Shown: positions 8,944-53,572, numbered from the stretch's first letter. The stretch is 64,000 nt of DNA from Thermodesulfovibrionales bacterium (GCA_963753165.1 CAVWBP010000002.1:80301-144300), one strand, 5' to 3'. The notes: a model not told the origin generated them from the sequence alone. Program-made: numbers and translations.

Positions 8944-8990
8944 GGATAACTTAATTTTCAGTTTTCAGATAAACTTGGCAGATGAATGTA

Positions 8991-19713: not shown

Positions 19714-19772
19714 AAACAACTTATATTCAATTGGTTTATGGATAGACCCCATGAGTTGTAAAAAGGAGGAAT

Positions 19773-34224: not shown

Positions 34225-34260
34225 TCAGTAGTGTGAGCAATTACAGTTTTGGAGGATAAG

Positions 34261-36183: not shown

Positions 36184-36210
36184 GTAATGCGTTGAACTCG
36201 GATGAAAAGA

Positions 36211-36230
36211 GGGCGGGTGAGAGCCCGCCC
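36211..36230 (+). terminator. GC-rich hairpin after the Ig-repeat gene (weak terminator candidate)
   Basis: GGGCGGG-tgagag-CCCGCCC. The downstream sequence is A-rich rather than T-rich. Confidence 0.3.
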
Positions 36231-36304
36231 TGAATAAAACGATAAATAGAAGGGTTCTGATTGGAGATGATGAGTGTGAATGATTTCAATAAAGGAGTGA
36301 GACC

Positions 36305-38408
36305 ATGAGGAAATATTTATATTTAATGATATGCCTGTTTCTTGCCGCCTGCGGCAGCCAGTCTTCCACGAACATCTCTTCAGATACATCAGGGTCCTCG
36401 GGCAGCATTAAGCTCTCTACGCAATCCATTCTTGCGGAGATGGAGAAGGGCGGCCAGTACAAGGACGGGGAACTGCTCGTGAAATTCAAATCCGGCGTCA
36501 AGGCCGCATCGACTGCTGCAGTGCATCAGGCAGCGGGGGCAACGGTCATAAGAAAATATACCGCAATCCAAAACCTTGAACAGGTGAAACTGCCCCAGGG
36601 GCTTTCGGTCAAAGATGCAGTGATGCAGTACATGTCGAGCCCGGGCGTTGAATACGCAGAACCGAACTATATAAGAAAATTAGACACCATAATACCGAAT
36701 GATACCTATTTCGCAAACCAATGGTCTTTCCTGAACACCGGTCAATATGCATATGGAATAGCCGGTGCGGATATCAAAATGGCGGCAGGATGGGATGTTA
36801 CCATCGGCAGCGGCGACATAACGATTGCGGTGCTTGATACGGGAATCGATTACAGCCACAATGACCTTGTCTGGAACATATGGAGGGATCTGGGCGAGAC
36901 GAGTTGCACCGATGCTATCGATAATGACGGAAACGGATACGTGGACGACTGTATAGGCTGGAATTTCGTCGATAATAACAGTGATTCAATGGATGACCAT
37001 GGCCACGGGACACATGTAGCGGGAGTTATCGGGGCCAAAGGGAATAACAGCACAGGCATTGCGGGCGTTATGTGGTTGACAAACATGATGGCGTTGAAGG
37101 TATGCGACGCGAATGGTTCCTGTGATGTCGGGGCTGAAATCGCAGCCATCGATTATGCTATTAACATGAAGGATAACCATGGGGTGAATGTGAGAGCCAT
37201 GAATGCCAGTTTCGGCGGCGGTGATTTTTCGGCTTCGGAATATCAGGCTCTCGCACGGGCAAACACCGCAGGGATTCTTTTCGTAGCTGCTGCAGGAAAT
37301 GGCGGCGGAGATGGAGTCGGCGATAATAACGATGTTGCCCCTCATTATCCCTCGAGTTACGATCTGCCGAATATTATCGCGGTCGCAGCGACTGACCAGG
37401 ATGACAGAAGGGTCTCATTCAGCAATTTCGGCCCAACCTCTGTTGATGTGGCGGCACCGGGTACCTATATTTTCAGTACAGTACCCAACTGGTGGACAAT
37501 GTATTATGGATACGGCCATCTTGAGATGTTCGATGGCACTTCCATGTCTACCCCGCATGTGACCGGTCTTGCCGGCCTTTTGAGCGCATATTATGGTCAT
37601 TTTACCCATGGCCAAATTCGTACGATGATACTGAGATATGTTGATGTGCTGCCCACGCTGAACGGCTGGATTCTCACAGGCGGAAGGATCAACGCGGACA
37701 GAGCCCTGAAGTCACTGTGGGCGACATACGATCTTTCTGCAACCCCGGTTTCCGCGTTACAGATGGATCTGGCATGGACCGACCGGGCTACGGACGAAAT
37801 CGGTTATAGAATTTATAGAGGAACAGACGGGATTTCTTATCTGCAGATAGCCACAGTCGGCGTGAACGGGTCATTTTACTCGGATGCAGGCCTCACTGAC
37901 GGGACGAGATATTATTACAGGGTGAGGGCGTTTAATGATATCGGCGAATCCCCTCTCCAGCAGGGAACTCAGGTATCTCAGGTGACGCCTATTAACCCTC
38001 CGACGAATCTGAGAGTAGTAACAACCTCAAGCGCTCAGATCCAGCTTGCCTGGTCGGACAATTCGTCGACTGAACAGAACTATTTGATCGAGAGACGTAC
38101 ATATAACAGTGATTTTGTACAGATAGACCAAGTGGGCCAGAACGTATCTACCTACACTAATTCCGGACTCAGTCCGGCCACTTCATACTGGTACAGGGTG
38201 AGAGCACATAATCCGGTTGCGGGATATTCTGCATATTCCAATGAAATTTCAGGGACCACTCTCTACTTCAGGCGGGACCACGAAGAAGCATGGCGGAGGC
38301 GGTGGATGTTCTGTCGGAGGGCCGCAGAATACACCGACAGCATTTGCAGACCTCCTGATACTGCTCATGCCTGCAATCGTACTCGCACTCATAAGACGGA
38401 GGAATTAA
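36305..38408 (+). CDS. S8 subtilisin-family serine protease lipoprotein: I9 prodomain, two FN3 domains and a Gly-Cys C-terminal sorting tag. The tag is in frame 0 after a shift near 38258-38262.
   Basis: Lipobox LFLAACG. I9 prodomain: GELLVKFKSG...GVEYAEPNYI. Catalytic triad: VLDTGIDYSHNDL, HGHGTHVAGVIG, GTSMSTPHVTGLAG. FN3 x2: YRIYRG...YYYRVRAFN and YLIERR...YWYRVRAHN. Shifted tail: GGGGGCSVGGPQNTPTAFADLLILLMPAIVLALIRRRN. Confidence 0.9.
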
Positions 38409-38436
38409 GGGTAATTACCGCTTATACATTTTCAAT

Positions 38437-38470
38437 ACAACCCCGAACATGTTCGGGGTTGTCTGTTTTT
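38437..38470 (+). terminator. Rho-independent terminator downstream of the first S8 protease
   Basis: Perfect palindrome ACAACCCCGAAC-at-GTTCGGGGTTGT followed by cTGTTTTT. Confidence 0.8.
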
Positions 38471-38546
38471 AGGGTGCCTTCTGATTCAGGGTATATGATG
38501 GGGTTCTCATAATAGTGTTGGACATAGAATTGAGTGCTTTTACTTT

Positions 38547-38610
38547 GTCATGCTGGCTTGTCCAGCATCTTTCTTCGCAGCAAGAAGGATTCCCGACAAG
38601 CGGGAATGAC
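38547..38610. repeat. Family-C palindromic element, copy 3
   Basis: Sequence gtcatgctggcttgtccagcatctttcttcgcagcaagaaggattcccgacaagcgggaatgac. Confidence 0.8.
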
Positions 38611-38677
38611 ACACTGGGTGAAGTCAATACTATTAGCACATCTTGATAATGTCAAAAAAGGTTAACAAGGATAACCA

Positions 38678-39554
38678 TTGAACACAGGACTTCTTACAAA
38701 AAGAACTATTTTTTCCCTGAATGTCTGCCTTAGCATCTTCCTCCTTTTCGCGGTCCTTTTTCTTGTAAGAGATGCGATGACGCTGTATTTCGAACAGGGA
38801 AAGACCATAAGGACGGAATCCACTTCGCCTGCCAATCAAGAAGCGGGAGCGAAAAAGGCGCAATTTACAGAGTACGCCCGTATCCTTGCCAATAACCCCT
38901 TTGGTTTCTCCGGAGGCGAACTGAAGCTTCTGGCCGGTTCTCTCCGCAAGCCTCTCGAATCCCGCGGATATCGCGCTGGTCGGCACAGTAGTGGGGCCGA
39001 AGGAACTGACGTTCGGGGTATTCAGGGACAGGACAGGTATGCAGGAAGTATTCAGGCTCGGCGAATCGGTCTTTGGAGCAGGGAAGCTCTCACGGGTCGA
39101 AAGGGAAAAGGTCCTGCTCAAACAGGGAGGCAGAGAGATCGAAATCCCCCTCGATGATGTCAAAATAAAAGAGATCAGCAAACCAGGCATTGCAGGCAGT
39201 CCACAGCTTTCCGCATTTGCCCAGAAGGTTGGGAGGGGTTTATACATCGTTGATCAGAACAAACTCCAGCAGGCAATTGCCGATCCGGGCCAGATGATGA
39301 CTGACGCACGGCTGAAACCAAACGTTGCAAACGGCAAGGAGGAAGGGTTTGTCCTCAATGAGGTGAAACCCGGGGGGATATACCATAGCCTGGGCCTCCA
39401 GGACGGTGATGTGCTGCTCCGGATAAATGAATATGATATTTCGAATCCTGAAAGGGCGCTGCAGGCATTTAATGCGCTGAAAGGTCTCGACAGGGTGCAG
39501 ATTGACATGATCCGTTCGGGTGCACGGATGACTATGACATATCAGATCAAGTAA
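38678..39554 (+). pseudogene. gspC: Type II secretion system protein GspC (TM segment, HR region, PDZ domain); frameshift near 38925-38945 as assembled
   Basis: TTG start and the TM segment IFSLNVCLSIFLLFAVLFLV. After the shift: DIALVGTVVGPKELTFGVFRDRTGMQEVFRLGESV...KVLLKQGGREIEIPL. PDZ: GFVLNEVKPGGIYHSLGLQDGDVLLRINEYDI. Confidence 0.8.
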
Positions 39555-39657
39555 GAAATGAATATAAGCGCATAGCAGGATAGCCTAATTAGACGGGTAA
39601 AGTATATTGATGATTCCCGCTTATCTTGTCCTTTCTCTGCGGAAGAGAAGATCGATG

Positions 39658-39688
39658 GTCATTCCCCTGAGTAAAGCCGGACAATGAC
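39658..39688. repeat. Family-C-like partial element, copy 4
   Basis: Sequence gtcattcccctgagtaaagccggacaatgac, preceded by a degenerate gattcccgcttatcttgtc. Confidence 0.5.
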
Positions 39689-39829
39689 ATATAGAACTAT
39701 GAGACCTTTAATACTGGCTGTAACTAGTGTTTGATGCTAAAATAAACGGTGATGCAGAATAGGGCTCCTGGAAGAGATTGCTCATCTCATGTCACAATAG
39801 ACTGAAGAGATGAAAAACAGCGAGAGGAA

Positions 39830-42140
39830 ATGAATAAACAACGGTCATCAGACATTATGAATGTATTCGCTATTCTGATTTTAATTGGATTTTTCGCCTC
39901 CGCTTCTCATCCCTGAATCTCTCTTCGCTGAAGAGACCCCGACCGATACCGCTGTTCAAGAGGATCAGCCTGTCAAAGTACAACAGGGGGATAATCCTCA
40001 GCAGGAACTTAAGCAGACTGGAAAACAAAAAGGCAGGGAGAAAAAAGTCGCCTTTAATTTTGTTGATGTGGACATACCGGTCGTGTGAAGTTTATCAGTG
40101 AAGTAACGGGCAAAAACTTTGTGTTCGATGAGAGAGTAAAAGGCACAATAACCATCATCGCTCCGTCCAGGCTTTCTGTGGACGATGCATTCCGTCTCTT
40201 CACCTCTGTGCTGGAGCTGAAAGGGTTTACCATCATCCCGTCCGGAAAAGTGTATAAGATTCTGCCGACTGCGCAGGCAAAGCAGACAGGGCCCGAACTC
40301 CAGAAAGACGAGGTTGTGCACGGTGAGCGATGCGTATATCACAAGGCTCATACAGCTGAGGGCGATATCATCTGCGAAGGCAATGAATTTCCTCCAGCCC
40401 CTTGTCTCAAGGGACGGACATATCTCTTCGTTCGGCCCCGGAAACATGCTTATGATTGTGGACTCTGCCACAAATATCGAGCAGATACTCGAGATCCTCG
40501 ACTCGATAGACAAACCGGGGGTGGAGGAAGCGGAGATTATCCTGCTGAAGCATGCAAATGCGGATGACGTGGTGAAGATCATCACCGAGACGCTGGTCCT
40601 GAGCAGCAAAGGGCAACCCTCTGCGATACGCGGACTGAGGCCGGGTGCAGGTGCCGGCAGCATCTGTCGAAGAATCCAAATCGTCTGTTTTTGCAGATAC
40701 CCGCCTGAATGCAATCGTCCTGATCGCGGACAAGCAGGGAAAGAGAGGCCATGAAGAGGATCATAGCGCTCCTCGATATCCCGCTTCCCGAGGCAACGAG
40801 CAAGATCAACGTCTATTTCCTTGAATATGCCGATGCGACGGAGCTCTCCGAGGTGCTCGAAACGATGCTTTCAGGGATTTCTGCACAGCAAGGGCAGGGC
40901 AGGCGGGACAGCAGGGCCAGGCCCAGAAGAGCCCCTTTGAGCCGGAGGGAAGATGATTATTTCCCCGGACAAGGCAACCAACTCTCTCGTTATTGTGGCA
41001 TCTCCTGCAGATTACCAGAACCTTGTCCAGGTAATAAGGCAGCTTGACAAGAAGAGAAGGCAGGTGTACGTGGAGGCGATGATCGTTGAAGCCTCAATAG
41101 ACAGATTGCAGGAACTCGGGTCCAAGTGGCGGATTATCGCCGAGAAGGACGGAGAACCGGTAGTGGTCGGAGGGTTCGGCCAGATCGACTCTACCTCAAT
41201 GCAGGGAATTCTTTACGGACTCACCGGAATGACAGCCGGCGGCATGGGAAACTTTCTCGATGTCCCGATTACGACAATTGGTTCGGACGGATCAGTTATC
41301 ACCTCGACACTCACAGTTCCGGGATTTGCCGCACTTTTCAGCCTGAACGAATTCAAGGATGCTGTAAATGTCCTTTCCACACCGCAGATCCTGACTTCAG
41401 ACAACAAGGAAGCGGAAATCATTGTAGGGGAAAATGTCCCGTTCATAGCCCAGAAAGAATCGGACCCCGCACGATCGCAATCAATTTTTACCTCGATTGA
41501 GAGAAAAGACGTCGGAATCACCCTGAGGATCACTCCTCAGATTACCGAAGGGAACCATGTGAAACTCGACATCTATGAGGAGATATCAGCCCTGAAGCAG
41601 GAATCGACAACGGTGGTGCTTACCGTGGGACCGACGACCACAAAACGTTCGACAAAAACGTCTGTTCTTGTCAAAGATAACCAGACTGTTGTAATAGGGG
41701 GGCTCATGGAAGAGAGAGAGGAAGAAACAGTGAATAAAATACCGCTCCTGGGCGACATCCCCCTCCTGGGCTGGTTGTTCAAGAATAAATCTGTGGAAAA
41801 AAAGAAGACAAACCTGCTCATATTTTTAACGCCCCATATTGTGAGAGAACCTGAGCAGCTCGATAAATTGACCGGTGAAAAAAGGCTGCAATTTGCAAGG
41901 ATGGAAGAAAGATATAAAGAGGGCGAATTGCTCGTAAAATTCAGGGGGGAGACTTCAGAAGAGAGAATCATGGAGATACTCTCTCAGGAAGGCGCTGCTA
42001 TCCTGGCCCCGTTACAACCGAAAGGGCTCTGCCGGATACAGCTGAAAAAAGGCCGGGAAGTGAAAGACGCGGTCAGGATTTTCACTGCATATCAGGAAGT
42101 GGAATATGCGGAACCCAATTATATTATGAAAATACAGTGA
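39830..42140 (+). pseudogene. gspD: Type II secretion secretin GspD with a C-terminal I9-prodomain-like extension; five or more frameshifts between 39.9 and 41.0 kb as assembled
   Basis: Signal peptide MNKQRSSDIMNVFAILILIGFFASA. N0/N1 pieces lie in different frames: VAFNFVDVDIPVV | KFISEVTGKNFVFDERVKGTITII | AKAMNFLQPLVSRDGHISSFGPGNMLMIVDS | SVFADTRLNAIVLIAD | INVYFLEYADATELSEVLE. Intact secretin core: VYVEAMIVEASIDRLQELG...LSTPQILTSDNKEAEIIVGENVPF...IPLLGDIPLLGWLFKNK...NLLIFLTPHIV. Confidence 0.88.
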
Positions 42141-42184
42141 AGCCCTTCAGAATTTAAAGCTTTTAAGATTATGAATGAATACAG

Positions 42185-43705
42185 ATGGAAACGATCGATG
42201 TCATAAAGGATGAGGATGTAGAAATCTCCCTTCTCCAGAATATTCCTCTCAGCTTCGTGAAGAACAACCAGATATTCCCTTTCAGCCGGAATGGCGAGGA
42301 ACTTTCAGGCGCTGTTGCTGACGACAGGGGGTTGCTGGCGCTTTCGGAAGTCGCAAAAACATTGGGCTTAAAGCCCAGACCTTTCAAGGCAAACTCAGGG
42401 ATCATCCTCGATGCAATCAACAGGTTCTACGGGCAAATGGGTTCGGCAGAGGAGGTTATGGATACCATAACCGGCGAGGACCTCTCCTCTGTCGCGACCG
42501 AATTCGAAGCCCCGAAAGATCTGCTCGAACTGACCGAGGAGGCTCCCATAATCCGTCTCCTCAACGCTCTCCTTCTCCAGGCGGTAAAAGAGAGGGCAAG
42601 TGATATCCACATCGAGCCGTATGAGAAAGAACTCGATGTGAGATTGAGAATAGACGGGATACTGCACAGGGTTTTGACCCCGCCAAAAATTATTCAGGAC
42701 GCGTTAATCAGCAGAATAAAGATCATGTCGAACCTCGACATCGCTGAAAAGCGGCTCCCGCAGGACGGAAGGATACGGCTTCTTCTCGGCGGAAGGGACA
42801 TCGATATCAGGGTGTCGGTCATCCCTACTTCTCACGGTGAGAGAGCGGTCCTGCGGCTCCTTGACAGAAAACAGGGCCTGCTGGGTCTCTGGGAGGTCGG
42901 GTTTAACAGGGATGACGAAAAGAATATGGAGGACCATCTGAGAAGACCGGATGGGATCATCCTGGTTACCGGACCCACGGGGAGTGGAAAAACGACGACC
43001 CTGTATGCTGCGCTCAACAGGATTCATACGGAAGAAAAGAATATTATCACGGTTGAGGACCCCATCGAATATCAGCTGAAAGGCATCGGACAGGTACAGG
43101 TGAACCCTAAAATACGGCTTACCTTTGCCTCAGGGCTCAGGTCTATTCTGAGACAGGACCCCGACGTGATTATGATCGGCGAAATAAGAGACCTGGAGAC
43201 GGCTGAAATAGCCATGCAGGCATCGCTTACAGGACATCTCGTTCTCAGCACCCTTCATACAAACGACGCACCGAGTGCGTTGGTGAGGCTTATAGACATG
43301 GGGATCGAGCCCTTCCTCGTCGCTTCGTCATTGGCCCTTGTGCTGGCGCAAAGGCTGGTACGGACGATCTGTCCCCAGTGCAAGATATCCTATACCCCGA
43401 CTGAGATCGAGCAATCATATTTTGCAGAACCTCCCAGGGTCCTCTACAGGGGACAGGGATGTGACAAATGCAAGGGGAAGGGATATCTCGGGAGACTGGG
43501 CATTTTCGAACTGCTTGAGATCAGCAATGAAATACGGCCCATGATCACCGAACGGATGGATTCTCAGAGAATAAAGAACCAGGCGGTTTCGCAGGGCATG
43601 AAGACCCTCCGGCAGGACGGACTTGAGAAGGTGATTCAGGGGATAACAACCCTTGAAGAGGTTCTGCGGGTAACACAGAAGGATTATGCCGATATTTCAA
43701 TATAA
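42185..43705 (+). CDS. gspE: Type II secretion ATPase GspE
   Basis: Walker A VTGPTGSGKTTTLYAAL. Asp/His boxes: ITVEDPIEYQL, RQDPDVIMIGEIRD, TGHLVLSTLHTND. Tetracysteine motif: CPQC...CDKC. Confidence 0.95.
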   Translation: METIDVIKDEDVEISLLQNIPLSFVKNNQIFPFSRNGEELSGAVADDRGLLALSEVAKTLGLKPRPFKANSGIILDAINRFYGQMGSAEEVMDTITGEDLSSVATEFEAPKDLLELTEEAPIIRLLNALLLQAVKERASDIHIEPYEKELDVRLRIDGILHRVLTPPKIIQDALISRIKIMSNLDIAEKRLPQDGRIRLLLGGRDIDIRVSVIPTSHGERAVLRLLDRKQGLLGLWEVGFNRDDEKNMEDHLRRPDGIILVTGPTGSGKTTTLYAALNRIHTEEKNIITVEDPIEYQLKGIGQVQVNPKIRLTFASGLRSILRQDPDVIMIGEIRDLETAEIAMQASLTGHLVLSTLHTNDAPSALVRLIDMGIEPFLVASSLALVLAQRLVRTICPQCKISYTPTEIEQSYFAEPPRVLYRGQGCDKCKGKGYLGRLGIFELLEISNEIRPMITERMDSQRIKNQAVSQGMKTLRQDGLEKVIQGITTLEEVLRVTQKDYADISI

Positions 43706-44866
43706 GGGATACAGGCCTGACGGTTCGGAGGTCGCCGGGCACTATCGAGGCAGCAAGCCAGAAGGAGGCAGCGCTCAGGCTTAAAGAGTCCGGACTCTAT
43801 CCAAGGAACGTAGCAGGGGCTTCAGAGAAAAGACGGTTCTCTCTGTTCAACCGGCACGATGCAACTCTCCTCCCCTCTGTGACGCGTCAGCTGTCAACAC
43901 TTATCTCCTCCGGTGTCCCGCTCCTTGAGGCCCTCAGGTCGCTTTCCGACGAACAGAAAGGTTTCTGGAAAACCATGCTGGTGGACATAAAAGAACGGAT
44001 TGCTGGCGGGATCGAGTCTCTCAAAGGCGCTTGGAAGAGTATCCGAAAATATTTCCCTGAATTCTATGTCAATATGGTTGCCGCCGGAGAGGCGAGCGGA
44101 AATCTCGACAATATTCTCACCCGCATTGCTGATTTTCTGGAGGCCCAGGACAACCTGAAATCCAAAGTCAGGACATCGATGGTCTACCCTGTTTTCATGA
44201 TCTGCATCAGTTTTATCGTGCTCTCTTTTCTCTTCGCCTTTGTGATGCCGAAAATTACCAGAATATACAAAGACACGCAGAGTGCACTCCCCTTGCTTAC
44301 CGTGGTCCTTATCTGGGTGAGTGAGATTTTTCAGCGTTACTGGTGGCTCCTTATAGGATTGCTTCTCGGCGGGTTATATTCCCTCAGGGAATTGAGGGAG
44401 AAGAAACGCGTATTCCTCGACAGGATGATATTGCGCATTCCCGGGAACATCCTCCAGAGTCTCTATTTCGGGCGTTTCGCCCGGACATTGGGGTTCCTTC
44501 TTGAGGGGGGGCTCCCTATGCTGAGTTCTCTTGAACTTTCTGCAAAGTCCATCGGGAATAAAGTGATCGAACATGAGCGTTCTGGAATCCGGGAAACGGG
44601 TGTCGGAGGGTGCACGGCTTTCTGCATCGCTCGATGGCTTTCCCCCGGTGCTCCTCCAGTTGATTTCGACAGGGGAGAGGAGCGGACAACTGGTAGAGGT
44701 TCTGAAAAATGCCGCACGTTCCTACGAGGAGGAGTTCTCCCGCAGGGTGGACAAAGCCCTTTCACTTCTTGAACCGGTGATGATTCTCTGCATGGGCTTT
44801 CTGGTGGGACTCATCGTCCTCGCAGTCCTTCTGCCGATATTCCAGTTGAACCAGTTGATAAAATGA
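43686..44866 (+). pseudogene. gspF: Type II secretion inner-membrane platform protein GspF; frameshifts near 43738 and 44570, plus a possible compensating pair around 44020-44055
   Basis: Starts MPIFQYKGYRPDGSEVAG | TIEAASQKEAALRLKESGLYP. Contains TRQLSTLISSGVPLLEAL and VNMVAAGEASGNLDNIL. After the shift: GFPPVLLQLISTGERSGQLVEVL...LLEPVMILCMGFLVGLIVLAVLLPIFQL. Confidence 0.88.
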
Positions 44867-44874
44867 GCATACGA

Positions 44875-44991
44875 ATAACTGTCCGGTATAGTACTTTCGC
44901 TCATTCTCGTCCCGAAAGCATTCGGGAGGACTCCGAGGTATTCCGATAAGAATCGGGATAAAGCCGCTCAAGTACTATACCGGACAGTTAT
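44875..44991. repeat. Structured intergenic element with perfect 21-bp terminal inverted repeats, between gspF and gspG
   Basis: ATAACTGTCCGGTATAGTACT (44875-44895) pairs with AGTACTATACCGGACAGTTAT (44971-44991). The interior carries the cccgaaagcattcggg hairpin shared with family-C copies. Confidence 0.85.
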
Positions 44992-45016
44992 CAGAGAACA
45001 ATATAACGGAGGAATA

Positions 45017-45448
45017 ATGAAGAACAATAAAGGATTTACCCTGCTCGAAATCATTGTGGTGGTCTTCATCCTCAGTCTCCTTGTGGCGATTGTGGCGCCG
45101 AAGATCATAGGGCGGACCGATGACGCGCGGATTGCAGAGGCAAAGGTTCAGATAAGGAATTTTGAGACTGCCCTGAAACTCTTCAAGCTCGACAACGGAT
45201 TTTATCCGGCTACGGAACAGGGGCTTGAATCACTCATCGAGAAGCCCACTGTCGGGCAGATACCCCAGAAATACCGTGAAGGCGGCTATCTTGAACAGAG
45301 AAAAATCCCGCTCGACCCCTGGAACAATCCCTATATTTATATCTCACCCGGTATCTACGGAGACTTTGATATCTTGAGCTACGGAGCAGATGGGAAAGAG
45401 GGCGGTGAAGGGAAAGATGCGGAGATCAAGAACTGGGACATGCAATAG
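45017..45448 (+). CDS. gspG: Type II secretion major pseudopilin GspG
   Basis: Prepilin signal MKNNKG|FTLLEIIVVVFILSLL. Also contains AKVQIRNFETALKLFKLDNGFYP, DPWNNPYIY and SYGADGKEGGEG. Confidence 0.95.
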   Translation: MKNNKGFTLLEIIVVVFILSLLVAIVAPKIIGRTDDARIAEAKVQIRNFETALKLFKLDNGFYPATEQGLESLIEKPTVGQIPQKYREGGYLEQRKIPLDPWNNPYIYISPGIYGDFDILSYGADGKEGGEGKDAEIKNWDMQ

Positions 45449-45886
45449 CACCGGATTTTCTCTTATTGAGCTGATCGTCGTACTCTTCGTCCTGTCTCTG
45501 GTCCTTGCGATTGTATTGCCGACCTTCACCGGTTTCGGAGAGAGCAGGCTTAAGGCCGAAGCACGGGAGATGGCCTCAATCCTGAGATACGTGAATGACA
45601 ATGCGGTATCGAGAAAAGAGACGTTCTTTCTGAAATTCGATCTCGGGAAAAATATGGTTGCCTGGAGTGAACCCGGAGGGAAAAAACCCGGTCTTTTGAT
45701 GATCTCACCGGCGTCGAAATACAATCGAGAGGTCTTGTGTCGAGTGGGGAACTGACTCTTTTCTTTGAACCTCTCGGCGCCCGTGAAAATCTCGTTGTGT
45801 ACATGAAGCGGGGAGACAGCCACATGACAGTTACACTAAACCACCTGAGCGGCAGGGTGAAAATCGAGACAAAGGATGAAGGATGA
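45417..45886 (+). pseudogene. gspH: Type II secretion minor pseudopilin GspH; frameshift near 45690-45700 as assembled
   Basis: Prepilin motif TG|FSLIELIVVLFVLSLVLAIV. After the shift: DDLTGVEIQSRGLVSSGELTLFFEPLGARENLVVYMK...VTLNHLSGRVKIE, stop at 45884-45886. Confidence 0.7.
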
Positions 45887-46031
45887 GGGATGAAGGAGAA
45901 ATAAAGAAGAAAAAAACATGAGGAAATACTTGTAAAAGAAAATATCAGAGGAATCTCTGAACAAGGATACGCTCAATGTCATTCCCGCGTGGCGGGAATT
46001 TTTCATCCTTCATCCCTCATCCTTCATCCTT
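45872..46031. repeat. Element bounded by perfect 26-bp inverted repeats made of GGATGAR heptads, spanning the gspH-gspI junction
   Basis: AAGGATGAAGGATGAGGGATGAAGGA (45872-45897) and its exact reverse complement (46006-46031). The 108-nt interior contains a family-C half-site hairpin ATTCCCGC-gtg-GCGGGAAT (45981-45999). Confidence 0.9.
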
Positions 46032-46361
46032 CGGAAGAGGGGCTTTACGCTTCTCGAGGTCCTGATCGCGCTGGCTATACTCAGCAGCCTGCTCGTCACC
46101 CTCATCTATACCGTGAATTACCAACTGGGACTCATCGAGAGGCAGGAGACTATCACGGTCGCAACCCTGCTCGCCAAGAGCAAGATGTCGGATCTCGAAA
46201 AAGATCCTGCCGGCAGCAAGGGAGAGTTCGATGCCCCCCATGAGCATTACTCATACGAGACTTTTGTGAAGGCCTCGCCGTATATCGGGGTTTCAGAAAT
46301 TATCGTTGTGGTAAAAGCGGGCAGTGAAGAGGTGAAACTGAATGAGTTTATTGTTCAATAA
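45989..46361 (+). pseudogene. gspI: Type II secretion minor pseudopilin GspI; GTG start and a frameshift in a G4 run near 46040 as assembled
   Basis: The frame after the shift reads G|FTLLEVLIALAILSSLLVTL...ERQETITVATLLAKSKMSDLE. The only in-range start (GTG 45989) is in the neighbouring frame. Confidence 0.7.
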
Positions 46362-47004
46362 GACTTATCCTTTATCCCCTTTTGCAGGGAAGGATAAGGC
46401 CGGGTTTCCTCCCTCCCGGCGAAAAGCCGGCTTTACGCTTCTGGAGGTGCTTATCGCAGTGTCGATCCTCTCCATCATTCTTGCCGCACTCTACAGCACA
46501 TTTTTCATGAGCCACAGGGCAATGGAAGGAATGGATGAATCTTTGACAAAACTTCAGGAGGCAAGAAGGGCCATCGATATCCTCAGGTGTGAACTTGAAT
46601 CGGCCTATCAGAATGAACAGGACGCAGATACTTTGTTCAGAATAGAGGACAGGGATGTCTACGGCAAGCAGACTACGCAGCTCGATTTCACCGCGTTCTC
46701 CGCAGTACGCCCCGGGCTTTCGAAGATTTCTTATTATGTTGAAGAGAAAGAGGGAAAACTGAGTCTCTTCAAAAAGGTGGAATCGCCGTACGGCAGGGAA
46801 GAATCAGAGGGCGTTGATATTATAGAAGATCTTGAAGGTTTTGCCGTCGAAGCAAAATATAATGATACCTGGGTAAGGACCTGGGATGCAGCAATAAATA
46901 AAGCAAAACCCGGGGAACTGAGGATCGGCATGACCATGAACATTAAAGGGCACACGATTACGCTCAATGATATCGCAAAACCGAGGATAGGAAATCAGGT
47001 ATAG
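46342..47004 (+). CDS. gspJ: Type II secretion minor pseudopilin GspJ, with an unusually long leader if ATG 46342 is used
   Basis: Contains RRKAG|FTLLEVLIAVSILSIILAAL, LQEARRAIDILRCELESAY and a beta-rich C-terminal half. Confidence 0.75.
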   Translation: MSLLFNKTYPLSPFAGKDKAGFPPSRRKAGFTLLEVLIAVSILSIILAALYSTFFMSHRAMEGMDESLTKLQEARRAIDILRCELESAYQNEQDADTLFRIEDRDVYGKQTTQLDFTAFSAVRPGLSKISYYVEEKEGKLSLFKKVESPYGREESEGVDIIEDLEGFAVEAKYNDTWVRTWDAAINKAKPGELRIGMTMNIKGHTITLNDIAKPRIGNQV

Positions 47005-47083
47005 ATTCCATATCATGAAAGAACAGAAGCCACTGTTTGAAAATTTAGTTGCTAAAAATTAACGGGTCAGGTTTCTCTAATAT

Positions 47084-47147
47084 GTCATTCCCGCTTGTCG
47101 GGAATCTTTTTGAGGAACCGGAAAGATTGCGGACAAGCCGCAATGAC
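47084..47147. repeat. Family-C palindromic element, copy 5 (near-consensus)
   Basis: Sequence gtcattcccgcttgtcgggaatctttttgaggaaccggaaagattgcggacaagccgcaatgac. Confidence 0.85.
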
Positions 47148-47158
47148 AAAAATTTCAT

Positions 47159-48089
47159 ATGAAATTGAAACAACCATATTTATTAGCAAGGAACCAGCAC
47201 GGCATGGCCTTGGTCATAACGCTGCTTGTCCTTGTGCTCTTGACCGCAATGGTAGTGGAATTTTCCTATGGCGTCTATACGGGCACGAATAATCTCTATA
47301 ACTGGAGGGATGCACAGCGCCTCTCCCTTATGGCAAAGTCAGGCGTCAGTGTGACTGCCAGGATTCTTAAAGGGTTGCGAATCAACAGAGTCAGTAAACA
47401 ACGCAAAATTTCATATTGAGATGCCTGTTGAAAATCCTTTCGAGGACTTTCAAGGGAATATAAACGTCAGGATCGAGGATGAAACGCCAAATTCAATCTA
47501 AACGCTCTTGTCTGTCCAGCGGGTGATCGGGATGTGAATATGGGAGCATACAATGCACTGAAGAGGCTTATTAGTGTGCTTGCACTTGATGAGAGGATAG
47601 CCAGACAGAATCGTCGACTGGATCGATGAAAACAGTGAGGTGAGAATTTCGGGGGGAGAAGCCGGCGCAAAGAATACTTTTCTTGATAGTACTGACGAAC
47701 TTCTCTTAATACGTGGGATTACCAAACAAGATTATGATACGTTAGTTCCTTATATTACGGTGTGCGGGTCAAAGGGGATGCTCTATGTTAATATTAATAG
47801 AGCAGACATCCCCGTTATGAGGAGCTTGTCAGATTGGATGAAAGAGCAGGATGCAGAGGAAATAGTCAATCGCCGCAACTCAATACCTTTTACAGGTGAA
47901 CATGGGGCAATTCTTGGAGAGATTCAAGGTATTGTGGGCGGATTTGGGACTGAAACAGGAGTCTTTTTGACTTCAGAAGGACAACACTTTTCTATAATTT
48001 CTACTGCATCATCAGGTGGTGTGAAGAGAATTATTGAAATGGTATTGAATACTGCGAAAAACACAATGGAGTACTGGAAGGAATATTAA
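47159..48089 (+). pseudogene. gspK: Type II secretion minor pseudopilin GspK; three or more frameshifts between 47.39 and 47.64 kb as assembled
   Basis: Starts GMALVITLLVLVLLTAMVVEF...WRDAQRLSLMAKSGV. Further pieces: IEDETAKFNLNAL, IVDWIDENSEV, and GGEAGAKNTFLDSTDELLLIRGITKQDYDTLVPYITV. Confidence 0.75.
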
Positions 48090-49153
48090 TGGCGACAGTG
48101 CTCTTTATCGATGTCAGGGAATCTGAAGTCGAAACCTATCTCTTCGATTCCGGAAGGGGTGGTCATACACTTAAGGAGAGGAAGACATATCCCCTGTCCG
48201 GCAACCTGGATTTTTCCCTCGATCCCGTTCCGGTGACTGTTGAGAATACCTATGTAAGCCTTCCTCTGAGCAGCCTCAATTTCAGGGTCGTAGACCTCCC
48301 GTTTGTGCAGAAAGACAAGGTCAGGGATGTCCTTCCCTTCGAACTTGACAGTATCATCCTCGGAGGATCTGAGAAGGTAGTCTTTGACGGCGTTCCGCTC
48401 AATAATTCCGGGGACGCAAGCCAGGTGCTTGCAGTGTATGCCGGGAAACAGACTATCGGGGACCTCCTCAGAAAACTGAAAACATGCAATGCAGACCCTG
48501 CCTGCGTAACATCGCTTGAGTTGAGCAAAGTGGTCCGGGAATTTTCATCGGAAAAACTTCTCGCTCCTGTGCGGTTGGAGGCGCAGGAAAGGGTATCTCT
48601 TGCGATTGAAGAGATGAAAATTCCTACCGTCAACCTCCGCAGGGACGAGTTCGCGTACACCCGCGAAACCGATAAGACAAAGAGGTCACTCAGATGGACT
48701 GCGCTCCTCGCGGTATTCGTCGCGCTTATTTTTGCGGCAGGTATACTGCTGAACATTCTCTCTGTCCGCTCGGAAATTGCAGCAGTAAAGAATGATATGA
48801 GGAAAAAATATCAGGAAGCTTTCCCCGGAGAAAAAAATATCATCAACGAACTCCATCAGATGAAGTCCCATATGAAAGAACTGAAAACCGATGAGGGACT
48901 CTACCTGGGAATCAGCCCTCTTGCAACCATCCTCAGGATATCGGATACTGACAGACAGGGCGTCGTGTTCCATGAGATAACCATCGACAGGGAGAACATG
49001 ATTCTGAAGGGCGAAGCGCCGACTCTGAGCGACGTGCAGAAGATGAAGGACAGGCTGGATGTTCTCTTTGACGGGGTCACCATATCAGACTCTAAGTCAT
49101 CTGCACAGGGCAGGATGCTGTTCACTATAACGGCAAAGGAGAGGAAATCCTGA
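48089..49153 (+). CDS. gspL: Type II secretion protein GspL-like (cytoplasmic actin-like domain, TM segment, periplasmic domain)
   Basis: Contains SLPLSSLNFRVVDLPFVQKDKVRDVLPFELDSIIL and the central TM segment WTALLAVFVALIFAAGILLNIL. Lies between gspK and gspM with coupled start and stop codons. Confidence 0.6.
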   Translation: MATVLFIDVRESEVETYLFDSGRGGHTLKERKTYPLSGNLDFSLDPVPVTVENTYVSLPLSSLNFRVVDLPFVQKDKVRDVLPFELDSIILGGSEKVVFDGVPLNNSGDASQVLAVYAGKQTIGDLLRKLKTCNADPACVTSLELSKVVREFSSEKLLAPVRLEAQERVSLAIEEMKIPTVNLRRDEFAYTRETDKTKRSLRWTALLAVFVALIFAAGILLNILSVRSEIAAVKNDMRKKYQEAFPGEKNIINELHQMKSHMKELKTDEGLYLGISPLATILRISDTDRQGVVFHEITIDRENMILKGEAPTLSDVQKMKDRLDVLFDGVTISDSKSSAQGRMLFTITAKERKS

Positions 49154-49656
49154 TGACGTTTCTTAAAGACAAAAGGGTCGTCGCTTTTTTTGCCGGTCTG
49201 ATCATTGTTATTTTTCTCTTCTTCTCCGGAATGCATCAGCTCTCATCATCAAAAAAAGAACTTGCCGCGCTCAAAGGACAACGGAATGAACTGTTCCTGC
49301 TGAAAGATGAATACCTCTCGCTGAAACAGAGAATAGATTCCGTGGAAGGCAGGAAGAGCCAGTCAGGCCCTCAGGGCATTGTCCAGGCAGTCGATGAAGT
49401 CTTCCAGTCTATGGGCTTGAAAGACAAAATAAAGACGCTGAAATCCACAGGGAAGAGAGAGATCAGGGACGGATTTGAAGAGAATGCCGATCTTTCCATA
49501 GAGAAAGTGACCATGAACGAGATGGTGAATATCCTCTACAGAATCGAGAATGCACCCATGGTCCTTACCATGAAAAAGGTTACCATAAAAAAGTCTTTTG
49601 AGAATCCCGAACTCATGAATATCTCCCTTGACCTCTCGTTCTTAAAGACAAAGTGA
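49153..49656 (+). CDS. gspM: Type II secretion protein GspM-like
   Basis: 167 aa with one N-terminal TM segment (VVAFFAGLIIVIFLFF), a coiled coil and a small C-terminal domain. Translationally coupled (ATGA) to gspL. Confidence 0.5.
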   Translation: MTFLKDKRVVAFFAGLIIVIFLFFSGMHQLSSSKKELAALKGQRNELFLLKDEYLSLKQRIDSVEGRKSQSGPQGIVQAVDEVFQSMGLKDKIKTLKSTGKREIRDGFEENADLSIEKVTMNEMVNILYRIENAPMVLTMKKVTIKKSFENPELMNISLDLSFLKTK

Positions 49657-50432
49657 AGCTTTTCCTCATCCTCATATGCGCGCTGGTCCTGATTGTCTTC
49701 GGACCATGGTTTGTTTTCTCTCCAAACACTCTGCAGGCCATTATCGAAGATTCCCTTTCAGCACACAGGATCGACACTGAATTGCATGGGCTGAAGAAAG
49801 GGTTGTTGTATACTATACATATTGATAGAGCTGTCCTGAGGCGGAACAGCCATGAACTGATCTCTTTGCATAATCTCTCTCTTCGTATTCACCCGGTCAG
49901 TCTCTTCATTTCCAGTCTGCGCGGGGCGATCGATGGAGAGGTATACGGAGGCACTATTTCCGGCAGCATGAAATTTACGAAGGACACGCAGCAGATGAAT
50001 TTTTCTCTGAAAGAAGTCAGCATCAGTGAGATAGTGTTTCTGAAAAGAATCGGACTGGCAGGGAAAGGCACCCTGTCCGGCACAGCAGCAATTACCGATG
50101 CAGCAGGTCATGTTGAGTTTGCTGCGAGGGACGCCCAATTTGAACCTGCCACCTATTCGGGAAGAAGGGTGCCCCTGAATATGTTTCGAGTTATTACGGG
50201 AGCGCTGGATATACAAGGTGATACGATACACATGCTGTCAGTTTCATTTGAGGGAGAAGAAGTGTTTGCGAGACTCAAGGGCAAGATTCAGAACGCGGTG
50301 ATGGATCTTGCCATGGAAATCATGCCGGGCAGGTCATTTGCGGAAAACCCCTTTCTGCTCGCGGAACTTGAGCAATACAAAGTTTCTCCCGGATATTTTG
50401 TAATACCGGTGAAGGGCAACCTTCCCCTATAA
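49653..50432 (+). CDS. gspN: Type II secretion protein GspN-like
   Basis: 259 aa with an N-terminal TM segment (LILICALVLIVFGPWFVF) and a beta-rich periplasmic body. Last gene of the gsp block, with a 4-nt overlap. Confidence 0.45.
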   Translation: MKLFLILICALVLIVFGPWFVFSPNTLQAIIEDSLSAHRIDTELHGLKKGLLYTIHIDRAVLRRNSHELISLHNLSLRIHPVSLFISSLRGAIDGEVYGGTISGSMKFTKDTQQMNFSLKEVSISEIVFLKRIGLAGKGTLSGTAAITDAAGHVEFAARDAQFEPATYSGRRVPLNMFRVITGALDIQGDTIHMLSVSFEGEEVFARLKGKIQNAVMDLAMEIMPGRSFAENPFLLAELEQYKVSPGYFVIPVKGNLPL

Positions 50433-50442
50433 GGAGGTTATT

Positions 50443-52749
50443 GTGAGATATTTCATTTACCTGGTTCTTGTGCTGGCGCTTGCAGGGTGCGGCGCAGAAG
50501 GACAACCCCGGATCACTCAAAACACAACGAATTCTGACTCTGTCGCCGTACACACACAGGAAGGTCCCCCCGCCGGGATGGTGTTACCGTTGCCCCGGTA
50601 TCTCCCCGGAGAAATTCTCGTGAAATTCAAGGCCGGAACTCCGAGCCACACAATAAATACGCTTAATCACGCAATGGGTGCGGCAACTGTCCGGGAACTG
50701 AAGCATATCGGAGTGCAACGGATTCTATTGTCTGATGCCATGGATCTTCAAGAGACGCTTGCCTCCTATCGATCGAATGCCGATGTTGAATATGCAGAAC
50801 CAAACTATATTGTGAGAAAGGCGGTCATCCCGAATGACCCCGGATTCCCTCAGGAATGGGGGCTCTCCAATACCGGGCAGACCGGAGGGAGCATTGATGC
50901 AGATATCGATGCTCCGGAAGCGTGGGACATCACCACCGGTTCACACGATATTCTCATCGCCGTGATCGATACAGGAGTGGCATATGGCCATCCGGACCTT
51001 GCAGCAAATGTCTGGCAGAATACGAAAGAAATTCCGGCGAATGGCATAGATGACGACGGGAACGGATACGTCGATGACGTCTATGGATGGGATTTTATCG
51101 ATAATGACGGGTATCCGGAAGACCTGGACTCGCACGGGACTCATGTCGCGGGTATTATCGCATCACAGGGCAATAATGGGGCTGGCGGATCCGGTGTTAT
51201 GTGGTCAGCCGGAATCATGGCGCTCCGTTTTTTAGGGGTGAGCGGGTCAGGTGATGTGGGGAATGCAGCCAGGGCAATCATCTATGCTGCCGACAATGGA
51301 GCGCGGATTATCAATGCAAGCTGGGGTGGTTTTGATTACTCAACTACTCTCTATAATGCTATCAGCTATGCACGATCCAAAGGGGTGCTCTTTGTTGCCG
51401 CTGCCGGGAATGAGGCGCAGAACAGTGATTTCGCTCCATTCTATCCTTCAGCATTTACCCTCGACAATATCATATCGGTTGCTGCTTCCGACAGCATGGA
51501 TAACCTCGCGTATTTTTCGAACTATGGAGCAACCTCTGTTGATCTGGCTGCCCCCGGAGTGGGGATCTATAGCACGGTCCCCGTTATTTCGGCGGGTGCT
51601 CCGGTTACTGTTTACAGTGAGAACTTTGACAGTGCGTCAGGTCTGCTTCCGCTGCTCGGATGGGCTCAGGGGGGAGTGAACGCAACATGGGCGGTAACCC
51701 CGGGCACCGGGGTGAATGGAACGAACAGCCTTGAAGACAGTCCGGGAGGAACCTATCTGCCAAACACAAATTCCTGGGCGGGCTATCTGACCCTTCTGCC
51801 AGCCGTGAAAAACAACCGTTATATTTTGTCCTGTGTCTGGAAAGGATATATTGATTCGTTTAGCCTCGATTATTTCCAGTTCAATTATTCTCCGGACGGC
51901 AAATCCTGGGAAACAGTTGCCTGGACAGACGGAAATACAGGAGGCAATTTTGTCCCGGTTTCTACCGACCTAATTACGGAAGCAGGTGATCTCTACGACA
52001 GGTTCTCTGTCGGTTTCGGTCTCCAATCAGACGGGGTCCTCCAGCAGGAAGGTGTCTATATTGATGATGTTACTGTGCAGAGGCAACCGCTGAGTATAGG
52101 CAGTTATTCATATGCATCGCAGGCCTGGAACGGCACCTCTCTTGCTGCTCCGTATGTGAGTGGCGCAGCAGGACTGGTATTATCTGCGAATCCTTCGTTC
52201 GTATACTCGGATGTCAAAAACATTCTCCTGAACAGCGTGGATAAGAAGCCTTTCCTCCTCGGGACTTCGGTTTCAGGGGGAAGGCTGAATGCCTTCGCAG
52301 CGTTAAAAGGGATGGCCCCGGCTGCGCCGTCAAATCTTGCAGCAACTGCGGTTTCATCAAGCCGCATCGATCTTTCCTGGACTGAAGTCTCCTCTGAAAC
52401 CGGCTTCAGCATAGAGAGAAAGACGGGAGAGAGCGGGATATTTGGAGAAATCGCACAGACAGGAATGAACAGTATGAGTTACGGTGACACCGGCTTGAGT
52501 CCGTCTACGACTTACTTTTATCGCGTGCGCGCGTATAACGCATCCGGCTATTCAGTATATTCGAATGAGGCACAGGCAACAACAGACAAATCTTCCTCCG
52601 GCAATGGAGGTGGAGGCGGCGGCGGGTGTGCCATCGGGGGCACCGCTTCCTCTCAGACAGCGATAGCAGATACCCTTGTGCTGGTTCTTCCTCTCATCAT
52701 TGTGTATCTTTTGAGAAGGAAAGGATCGAATACGCTGTTTCGCAATTAG
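50443..52749 (+). CDS. S8 subtilisin-family serine protease lipoprotein: I9 prodomain, a ~190-aa insert between the His and Ser regions, one FN3 domain and a Gly-Cys C-terminal sorting tag (GTG start)
   Basis: Lipobox LALAGCG. I9 prodomain: GEILVKFKAG...DVEYAEPNYI. Catalytic triad: VIDTGVAYGHPDL, HGTHVAGIIAS, NGTSLAAPYVSGAAG. FN3: FSIERK...YFYRVRAYN. Tail: GNGGGGGGGCAIGGTASSQTAIADTLVLVLPLIIVYLLRRKGSNTLFRN. Confidence 0.92.
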   Translation: MRYFIYLVLVLALAGCGAEGQPRITQNTTNSDSVAVHTQEGPPAGMVLPLPRYLPGEILVKFKAGTPSHTINTLNHAMGAATVRELKHIGVQRILLSDAMDLQETLASYRSNADVEYAEPNYIVRKAVIPNDPGFPQEWGLSNTGQTGGSIDADIDAPEAWDITTGSHDILIAVIDTGVAYGHPDLAANVWQNTKEIPANGIDDDGNGYVDDVYGWDFIDNDGYPEDLDSHGTHVAGIIASQGNNGAGGSGVMWSAGIMALRFLGVSGSGDVGNAARAIIYAADNGARIINASWGGFDYSTTLYNAISYARSKGVLFVAAAGNEAQNSDFAPFYPSAFTLDNIISVAASDSMDNLAYFSNYGATSVDLAAPGVGIYSTVPVISAGAPVTVYSENFDSASGLLPLLGWAQGGVNATWAVTPGTGVNGTNSLEDSPGGTYLPNTNSWAGYLTLLPAVKNNRYILSCVWKGYIDSFSLDYFQFNYSPDGKSWETVAWTDGNTGGNFVPVSTDLITEAGDLYDRFSVGFGLQSDGVLQQEGVYIDDVTVQRQPLSIGSYSYASQAWNGTSLAAPYVSGAAGLVLSANPSFVYSDVKNILLNSVDKKPFLLGTSVSGGRLNAFAALKGMAPAAPSNLAATAVSSSRIDLSWTEVSSETGFSIERKTGESGIFGEIAQTGMNSMSYGDTGLSPSTTYFYRVRAYNASGYSVYSNEAQATTDKSSSGNGGGGGGGCAIGGTASSQTAIADTLVLVLPLIIVYLLRRKGSNTLFRN

Positions 52750-52778
52750 TGAAAGATGCAAAAGTAATGTCCTATTTT

Positions 52779-52848
52779 GTCATTCCGGCTTGCCCGGAAT
52801 CTTTCTTCAGAATCCCGAAAGCTTTCGGGACCGACAAGCGGGAGTGAC
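52779..52848. repeat. Family-C palindromic element, copy 6
   Basis: Sequence gtcattccggcttgcccggaatctttcttcagaatcccgaaagctttcgggaccgacaagcgggagtgac. Confidence 0.8.
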
Positions 52849-52921
52849 AGATTACGAGTAAATTGCATAGGGCATTAATTATGCAGGAATCAATCATGTG
52901 CCTGGGGAGCGGCAATTCTGT

Positions 52922-53461
52922 TTAACCGGGAATTGACTGTTGTATCAGATTCGCAAGCCAGTGAAATATAATCCCGGGCAGTATATTGTTCGTCTTCAGG
53001 TAAAGCCATCCCATAATCAGTGAGGGGAAAAAACTGAGGAGTACAATCCAGTCGCCCCCGAATATCGTCTTCGGGAGATGGGCAAGCGCAAACAGGAGGC
53101 TTGCGAGGACGATAGATTTATAATTCTTCCCCAGCGAATCCTGAATGAACCCTCTGAAGAAAAATTCTTCAGGGAACGCAACGCTGATAAACTGAAACGC
53201 TATGAAATAAGGGGTAAGGTCTGTCATCTGTGCTCTGAAGGCAATCCCGTAAGGCACAAGAATCAGCAGTGTTATGGCAATCCCGAGCACGATATCCTTC
53301 GGAGAAGAACTGATCTTTACCCTGTAGCCTGTGATTATCGGATAGAGCAGCAGGAAGACCGGCAGCATCAGGTGGATATACGTTTTTGCAGGACTCAGTG
53401 CATGGAGGAGAAACGAGAGGACCAGAACGATACAATACCCTGATATGGTTTTTTTATTCAT
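52922..53461 (-). CDS. CPBP-family intramembrane glutamic endopeptidase (type II CAAX protease/Abi fold)
   Basis: 179 aa, polytopic. Motif 1 FPEEFFFRGF (EExxxR), motif 2 LLFALAHL (FxxxH), motif 3 IFHWLANL (HxxxN). Confidence 0.85.
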   Translation of the reverse strand: MNKKTISGYCIVLVLSFLLHALSPAKTYIHLMLPVFLLLYPIITGYRVKISSSPKDIVLGIAITLLILVPYGIAFRAQMTDLTPYFIAFQFISVAFPEEFFFRGFIQDSLGKNYKSIVLASLLFALAHLPKTIFGGDWIVLLSFFPSLIMGWLYLKTNNILPGIIFHWLANLIQQSIPG

Positions 53462-53513
53462 CGCTGTTTTATGTCTGATTCAGTAATATAGTCATAAGAA
53501 AAAGATATCCGCT

Positions 53514-53572
53514 GTCATTCCCGCTTGTCGGGAATCTTTCCCGAAGAAGGATTGCGGACAAGCCGCAATGAC
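53514..53572. repeat. Family-C palindromic element, copy 7 (near-consensus)
   Basis: Sequence gtcattcccgcttgtcgggaatctttcccgaagaaggattgcggacaagccgcaatgac. Confidence 0.85.

Follow-up and report, generated by a model that had tools for sequence, protein, structure and literature searches.

The locus analyzed here raises the question of whether a small intramembrane protease, encoded next to a secreted protease with a Cys-containing C-terminal tail, is the enzyme that processes that tail. The gene lies in a 64,000-nucleotide stretch of DNA from a Thermodesulfovibrionales bacterium (GCA_963753165.1 CAVWBP010000002.1:80301-144300), which we call the window, and a first-pass annotation had proposed that it encodes a dedicated, myxosortase-like sorting enzyme. 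Comparing sequences and gene neighborhoods, we estimate at roughly 0.7 the probability that the protein is a compact (~178 aa, ~7 transmembrane segments) protease of the myxosortase branch and the cognate processing enzyme for a tripartite tail not yet catalogued. The features of the window on which this reading draws are collected in Table 1.

Table 1. Features of the window around the candidate sorting enzyme (positions counted from the first nucleotide of the window)
Feature	Position	Strand	Remarks
S8 protease 1, body	36305..38270	+	lipobox LAAC, prodomain, S8, two fn3; 44% identical to S8 protease 2
Sorting tail of S8 protease 1	38298..38405	+	GGGCSVGGPQNTPTAFADLLILLMPAIVLALIRRRN; frame differs from body
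T2SS operon	38991..50432	+	gspC-D-E-F, pseudopilins, gspK-L-M-N; between the two tagged proteases
S8 protease 2	50443..52749	+	last gene of the T2SS operon; lipobox LAGC, fervidolysin-like prodomain, S8, fn3, Cys tail
C-terminal sorting tail of S8 protease 2	52618..52725	+	GGGCAIGGTASSQTAIADTLVLVLPLIIVYLLRRKG
Palindromic repeat element	52779..52850		in the gap between S8 protease 2 and CPBP; terminator-like hairpin at 52782-52800
CPBP/Rce1-like glutamic intramembrane protease, candidate sorting enzyme	52922..53461	-	179 aa, ATG start, ~7 TM
CPBP motif 3, HWLAN	52949..52963	-	residues 167-171 (His167, Asn171); invariant in family
CPBP motif 2, FALAH	53078..53092	-	residues 124-128 (His128); invariant in family
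CPBP motif 1, EEFFFRG	53150..53170	-	residues 98-104, catalytic Glu98/Glu99 and Arg103; invariant in family
Second copy of the repeat	53514..53572		between the CPBP gene and aroC

The gene had been described as encoding a protein with all three CPBP/CAAX-protease motifs, and this was borne out: the open reading frame is real, its product matches the Rce1-like family PF02517 at 77.7 bits (gathering threshold 22.4), and the catalytic motifs by which the CPBP/Rce1-like family is recognized (EExxxR, FxxxH and HxxxN/D) could all be located. In a family alignment of 33 sequences, comprising the window protein and 32 homologues with 51-80% identity, residues E98, E99, R103, H128, H167 and N171 are invariant. 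An AlphaFold2 model built from this alignment (mean pLDDT 92.7, pTM 0.88) has eight helices, of which seven are long enough to cross a membrane. The nearest relatives, up to 96% identical, come from Thermodesulfovibrionales MAGs, and in public sources the homologues are named only as generic CPBP, Rce1 or YdiL proteases.

The CPBP gene is convergent with that of the second S8 protease across a repeat element, as annotated, with a gap of 172 bp; aroC is the divergent neighbor on its other flank. The palindromic element is MITE- or REP-like. Its 23-nt end GTCATTCCNGCTTGYCNGGAATC has seven matches in the window where none is expected, all of them intergenic and some on either side of the CPBP gene, and the element also matches at 38588-38610, 45978-46000 and 47084-47147. 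A related locus (L010) has a gap of 6 bp between the S8 and CPBP genes and lacks the element, and a promoter and terminator scan of the gap in the window found nothing exceeding chance. Elsewhere in the window, a 44-nt direct repeat with 89% identity (8910-8953 and 19680-19723; intergenic, 10.8 kb apart) contains the hairpin GGATTCCCCGATCAAGTCGGGGAATG and may be related to the palindromic repeat family.

The putative clients in the window are the two S8 proteases. The second carries GGGGGGGCAIGGTASSQTAIADTLVLVLPLIIVYLLRRKG... at its C-terminus. For the first, which had also been described as tagged, a tail is indeed encoded (GGGGGCSVGGPQNTPTAFADLLILLMPAIVLALIRRRN) but in a reading frame that differs from that of the body, with the junction near 38270; in S8 proteases of its type, such as P0170 (52% identical), the tail is in frame. 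Directly upstream of this gene, the gene for a Big_1/invasin-like lipoprotein (34249-35415) precedes ~900 bp where short open reading frames with Ig-like sequence occur in several frames, and the region as a whole (34249-36300) looks like another frameshifted large surface-protein gene.

Both tagged S8 proteases have lipoprotein signal peptides, with the lipobox in 50443-50500 (LAGC) and in 36305-36360 (LAAC). A strict lipobox pattern was found at the N-terminus of 15 of 18 S8 orthologues (from loci in the L008-L032 range, L033 and L059); of the other three, those of L024 and L033 have near-matches and that of L059 has none. Inspection by eye revealed an N-terminal lipobox in three carriers of the tail that are not S8 proteases as well (P0163, P0172 and P0179). 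The S8 precursors would, on this evidence, be anchored at both ends. Because the prodomain separates the catalytic domain from the N-terminal lipid anchor, the protease would be freed on maturation unless a C-terminal anchor exists, and the need for an anchor after prodomain loss may be a reason for the tail.

We next describe the tail itself, which spans 36 residues with the consensus GGGCSIG-x3-N-x2-TA-x-AD-x6-P-x7-RRR. Its parts are, in order, a run of Gly residues, an invariant Cys, the stretch SIG-x3-N-x2-TA-x-AD, a transmembrane helix in which a mid-helix Pro is invariant, and a cluster of Arg/Lys. We aligned 50 tails, 34 of them representatives from a profile search and 16 from the loci described below; since this set was selected with the profile, part of the conservation is by construction. 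Counting from the Cys (position 0, 50/50), Gly occupies -3 and -2 (47/50 each), -1 (48/50) and +3 (47/50), with Ser at +1 (44/50) and Ile or Val at +2 (48/50). These are followed by Asn at +7 (43/50), Thr at +10 (45/50), Ala at +11 (43/50) and +13 (46/50), Asp at +14 (44/50) and Pro at +21 (50/50). The stretch from the Cys to this Pro is free of indels in all 50 tails, and the basic cluster starts from +29. Residues conserved within the helix mark recognition by an intramembrane protease, as argued by Haft (bioRxiv 10.1101/2023.06.07.544157). The tail combines all the features of a general tripartite C-terminal signal, namely a motif, a transmembrane helix and a basic cluster at the extreme C-terminus of non-homologous carriers.

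No curated CTERM model reaches its cutoff on this tail. JDVT-CTERM (NF033191) is the best, sub-threshold match both for the first window tail (16.1 bits) and for the tail of L033 (23.3 bits), against a cutoff of 27. MYXO-CTERM (TIGR03901) does not match the window tails and gives at most 9.3 bits for Nitrospirota tails (cutoff 20), and Synerg-CTERM (TIGR04564) gives no meaningful score on the tails. Nitrospirota are not mentioned in the JDVT-CTERM study (Haft 2023, bioRxiv 10.1101/2023.06.07.544157), and our literature search returned no description of this tail-and-enzyme system. Judged by its sequence and its carriers, the tail is a modular signal that is found on several kinds of protein and is absent from current catalogues.

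In a scan of the enzyme against NCBIfam (June 2026), models of the myxosortase (Mrt) family make up the top four matches and eight of the 11 listed, with MrtS (NF040589) scoring best at 80.3 bits (cutoff 130). The other scores were 73.9 bits for MrtP (cutoff 250), 70.8 for Mrt_core (NF040914; cutoff 100), 53.8 for MrtC (cutoff 195), 42.1 for MrtX (cutoff 180) and 39.7 for MrtJ (NF033192; cutoff 75), so that no Mrt model reaches its curated cutoff. Four generic CPBP controls, taken from plasmid records of Photobacterium, Providencia, Bacillus and Halocatena, gave 29-39 bits with Mrt_core and had ABC_perm_CPBP as their top match; the window protein scores about twice as high on Mrt models as these generic proteins. 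Scanned relatives from Myxococcales, Binatia, another Nitrospirota lineage and unclassified bacteria reached 99-116 bits with Mrt_core, in a set that is biased because most of its distant members were recovered through the pattern PEEFFFRG. With scores above the generic controls and below the curated cutoffs, the window protein takes a place intermediate between the generic CPBPs and the catalogued myxosortases. By the curated sequence tests it is myxosortase-like and not a member of any named Mrt family, since it falls below the threshold of each. A tree tells a similar story: in a neighbor-joining tree without bootstrap, the window family adjoins a Dadabacteria/Thermodesulfobacteriota clade beside Mrt-positive clades, but generic outgroups scatter, and we give this placement little weight for that reason. 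Most members of that large clade (L034-L065) are ~201 aa long, and the two that we scanned (L035 and L059) gave about 65-68 bits with Mrt_core.

We then asked what is encoded near the enzyme. Scanning 185,579 species genomes with the CPBP family alignment yielded 80 loci, whose neighboring open reading frames we analyzed. Of these, 26 are of the Thermodesulfovibrionales type (40-96% identity), and two of them end right behind the CPBP gene, leaving 24 informative loci. A tail-bearing protein is encoded within 6 kb of CPBP in 20 of the 24, in seven different gene arrangements. In 18 it is an intact tailed S8 protease; in L013 and L023 the tail of the S8 protease is broken by a frame interruption, in L022 only S8 fragments are present, and in L016, L021 and L031 CPBP abuts gspN with no protease or other client between them. 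As shared ancestry could explain the common layout, the rearranged loci carry the weight. In L024, gspN and CPBP are followed by a convergent tailed S8 gene, with aroC 6 kb off; in L033, pilMNOPQ and a tailed S8 gene are followed by a convergent CPBP gene, and the T2SS is not nearby; and in L032, a 1664-aa gene separates the tailed S8 gene from CPBP in the same orientation. In L059, from Thermodesulfobacteriota, CPBP is followed after 422 bp by a tailed S8 protease of different architecture (P-domain and He_PIG). CPBP thus remains near tailed proteins through several independent rearrangements (L024, L032, L033 and L059).

Among more distant homologues, CPBP genes of the broad clade directly adjoin genes for Cys-tailed proteins from unrelated families: a Cys-tailed C10 peptidase with Kelch repeats (L068), a Cys-tailed S8 protease with NosD and BACON domains (L077) and a Cys-tailed metalloprotease-like protein (L076). 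A Cys-tailed beta-helix protein is encoded 1.9 kb from CPBP in L046, and Cache-domain proteins with GGCAI(S/A)G... tails lie 3.7-5.5 kb away in L058 and L061. The clade L034-L065 is otherwise mostly without a tail carrier within 10 kb, the exceptions being L046, L058, L059 and L061.

It might be argued that the enzyme belongs to the generic CPBPs and does something unrelated in the membrane, for instance in bacteriocin immunity or envelope homeostasis, and that its adjacency to the protease is simply inherited Thermodesulfovibrionales gene order. The purely generic public names of the homologues, the Mrt scores that all remain under their cutoffs, and aroC, which is likewise a conserved neighbor, are in keeping with this. 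We consider it improbable given that adjacency to tail carriers persists in loci without aroC, the T2SS or both (L024, L033, L059 and L101), that Mrt models score the protein about twice as high as generic controls, and that the adjacency recurs at non-homologous clients found from the tail alone, as described below.

The three clientless loci in which CPBP abuts gspN (L016, L021 and L031) invite a different explanation, in which CPBP is an accessory of this T2SS variant that acts on a secretion component or, together with GspN, on membrane lipids. Two loci from other Nitrospirota MAGs are similar in this respect: in L085 (1480-3117) and L087 (9035-10657), CPBP is divergent from an AsmA/GspN-like gene and no other T2SS genes are visible nearby. 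The L085 protein scores 113.7 bits with Mrt_core, above the cutoff, and its neighbor matches both Pfam AsmA and, by BLAST, the GspN of the window; L087 has the same layout and is described from gene order rather than from family-library scores. Against such a role, L032, L033, L059, L095 and L101 combine CPBP and a tail carrier with no T2SS genes nearby, and we know of no T2SS subunit that requires a CPBP protease. We regard this explanation, too, as having little chance of being correct.

Linkage was also examined from the side of the tail. We built a 36-position profile from the two window tails only and searched 1.84 billion representative proteins (E ≤ 1e-3). This resulted in 34 proteins, all 34 matched at their extreme C-terminus. 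By BLASTP, 21 of these carriers match the two S8 proteases of the window and 13 do not, although one of the 13 (P0160) may be a C-terminal fragment of an S8 protease. We scanned 10 of the 13 with Pfam: P0163, P0178 and P0179 are large proteins with HYDIN/VesB-like Ig, ASH and DUF1573 repeats, P0172 and P0168 are He_PIG proteins, P0182 has a weak match to Temptin_C and a CxxCH motif, and P0164, P0167, P0184 and P0187 have no Pfam matches. The motif, of the form CGVCH, lies near the N-terminus of both P0182 (L094 10001-11314) and P0167 (L098 4948-6009), which may be surface-anchored heme- or metal-binding proteins.

Two of these non-homologous carriers lead back to the CPBP family. At the P0172 locus, pilMNOPQ is followed on the same strand by a 151-aa gene, P0172 and, after 60 bp, a 179-aa Rce1-like gene whose product is 44% identical to the window CPBP, with aroC beyond it. 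P0178 is followed after 45 bp, also on the same strand, by a 209-aa Rce1-like gene (40% identity to the window CPBP) in an otherwise different neighborhood. Both enzymes have an NCBIfam score profile like that of the window CPBP. No CPBP gene was found within 10 kb on each side of P0182, or in the flanks of P0167, which extend only ~1.5 kb downstream; further carrier look-ups ended at contig edges. P0182 shares the assembly JACRLQ01 with the CPBP and tailed S8 protease of L032, and that genome therefore has at least two kinds of client.

Co-occurrence with a Cys-containing tripartite signal, one of the marks of a myxosortase, is thus seen at the level of gene neighborhoods in both directions. 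The proposal was to have been abandoned if CPBP fell in a generic subfamily with no co-occurrence with the tail; what we observed was Mrt scores about twice the generic ones and two-way linkage. The word "dedicated" needs qualification: CPBP is linked to tail carriers but is not dedicated to the neighboring protease alone, given the modular tail and the presence of two kinds of client in at least one genome. The sequence data support the view that CPBP serves a modular signal on several kinds of protein, beyond the protease next to it.

Three other searches with the tail were uninformative. A protein search with a 44-aa alignment of 17 tails produced 8000 word candidates and none at E ≤ 10, the Gly run probably swamping the search; scanning metagenome contigs for a strict DNA pattern back-translated from the tail gave a single match, a chance one inside a signal peptide; and the final 150 aa of S8 protease 2 (fn3 and tail), used as a protein query, brought up only fn3 fragments, all of them tailless. 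A ~150-aa lipoprotein with no Pfam match is encoded directly upstream of two non-S8 carriers (L095 9495-9950 and L093 344-805; 31% identical to each other); we rejected it as a shared extra component on account of its having no homologue in the window.

That another enzyme processes the tail and CPBP is co-regulated for a different reason, such as defending the cell against the protease or clearing away the tail helix left after cleavage, may draw on the fact that the Cys-modifying enzyme is not known for MYXO-CTERM either, but we think it unlikely, as CPBP is the sole recurrent neighbor common to S8 and non-S8 carriers, no rhombosortase- or exosortase-like gene occurs in the annotated parts of the window or beside the tail carriers looked up, and the window has no homologue of the lipoprotein that precedes two non-S8 carriers.

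The system resembles several known ones and differs from each of them. Among the closest is JDVT-CTERM with its enzyme MrtJ (Haft 2023, bioRxiv 10.1101/2023.06.07.544157): its tripartite tail also contains a Cys and conserved in-helix residues, and the CPBP enzyme is usually encoded beside one of few clients per genome. However, JDVT-CTERM has a DP motif nine residues after the Cys, whereas the tails described here have no DP at +9 but Asp at +14, Pro at +21 and the spacer N..TA.AD; it is also a system of Pseudomonadota, whereas the present one is from Nitrospirota and linked to a T2SS operon. Synerg-CTERM and MrtS share with it the small size of the enzyme (170-aa model) and the association with a T2SS cassette, and MrtS is the best-scoring model for the window CPBP. 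They differ in that the signal has no Cys-helix spacer and in that the corresponding GspC and GspL models match only weakly here. MYXO-CTERM and its enzymes MrtX, MrtC and MrtP (PMC11980579) share the superfamily branch, the invariant Cys and, in our proposal, cleavage and T2SS-dependent surface display; for MrtX, Cys-dependent cleavage of MYXO-CTERM and T2SS-dependent surface display have been demonstrated experimentally (Guo, Haft and Wall 2025, PMC11980579). These myxosortases are nevertheless housekeeping enzymes with more than 30 clients that are not encoded nearby, and they are larger, with variable N-terminal halves.

Two more distant systems are instructive. In GlyGly-CTERM and rhombosortase, as with VesB of Vibrio cholerae, the client is also a tailed serine protease; it is cut by an intramembrane protease, re-anchored and exported by the T2SS, much as proposed for the S8 proteases, and VesB-like Ig domains occur in some carriers of the tail described here; the enzyme, though, is an unrelated rhomboid serine protease and the signal lacks Cys. 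The eukaryotic and archaeal type II CAAX protease Rce1 belongs to the same PF02517 fold family, with Glu, His and His-Asn motifs and recognition that depends on a modified Cys, but it takes off only three residues after a prenylated C-terminal Cys, whereas the cut proposed here would remove ~35, a membrane helix among them.

By analogy with these systems, CPBP most likely trims the Cys-containing tail of surface proteins, secreted proteases among them. Clients would be exported by Sec, most of them with an N-terminal lipobox, and the tail helix would retain them in the inner membrane, the basic cluster facing the cytoplasm. The tail Cys would be modified, probably lipidated, and CPBP would bind the tail helix within the membrane, with the conserved Asp and Pro as likely recognition features. 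The enzyme would then make an intramembrane cut just after the Cys. We infer cleavage, its position and Cys lipidation from MrtX and Rce1, the cleavage by Rce1, which follows a lipid-modified Cys, serving as the model for the proposed cut. The T2SS of the same operon, on which the clients presumably depend, would bring each client to the surface, where the new C-terminal anchor would hold it. An S8 protease that has shed its lipid-anchored N-terminal prodomain would then be tethered by this anchor alone.

In the window, parts of this system are disrupted. The genes gspD, gspF and gspK are broken by frameshifts, the gspD break lying at ~39.9-40.9 kb. Relative to L009, which is 90% identical, single-base indels occur in gspF at 43736, 44010, 44032, 44058 and 44570 and in gspK at 47375-47602. 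Many such indels fall within 36305-48100 (S8 protease 1, gspD, gspF and gspK) and none in 47640-53472. Because gspD, gspF, gspK and the tail of S8 protease 1 are all frameshifted, the T2SS/tail system may be impaired in this organism, or the sequence may be error-prone; gene decay and sequencing error would both fit. The GspN of the window is of the Leptospira type (TIGR04411, 89 bits). We rejected a T2SS of the Synerg-CTERM type: the Synerg models gave 45.9 bits for GspC (cutoff 200) and 29.7 for GspL (cutoff 150), and those for GspM and GspN were unmatched.

The secretin has a feature of its own. The C-terminus of GspD (41898-42119 of the gspD open reading frame 40953-42140) contains a Fervidolysin_NPro-like domain (PF22148; 44 bits, cutoff 21), as does that of L021 (10812-12398; 46 bits, cutoff 21), and BLAST finds the prodomain-like segment in GspD of L016, L024 and L031 as well. 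This family is also that of the prodomain of the tagged S8 proteases, and a secretin that bears a copy of the prodomain of its cargo may be without precedent in the literature. A more elaborate version of our reading, which we put forward tentatively and consider doubtful as a whole, would join these elements into one module: a new class of Cys tail and a minimal myxosortase with seven transmembrane segments, a GspD prodomain copy that docks or chaperones the S8 protease, and an anchor swap in which the N-terminal lipobox, lost with the prodomain, could be replaced by a C-terminal lipid anchor made by CPBP.

Four signals are known to date for sorting of the myxosortase type (MYXO-, JDVT-, Synerg- and CGP-CTERM), and among the enzymes MrtX alone has been put to an experimental test. 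The pair described here would add a new signal and enzyme of this type in another phylum, Nitrospirota (order Thermodesulfovibrionales), distinguished by a strongly conserved signature, a very small enzyme and the physical linkage of enzyme, client and T2SS genes. Because the enzyme adjoins its client, is only ~178 aa long and would act on a 36-aa tail with an invariant Cys and Pro, the system is compact, and it could serve as a model for how CPBP proteases recognize transmembrane substrates, at which position they cleave and by what means the Cys is modified. For the family, there would be a gain in annotation: the ~240 homologues found are now labeled as generic CAAX/YdiL proteases.
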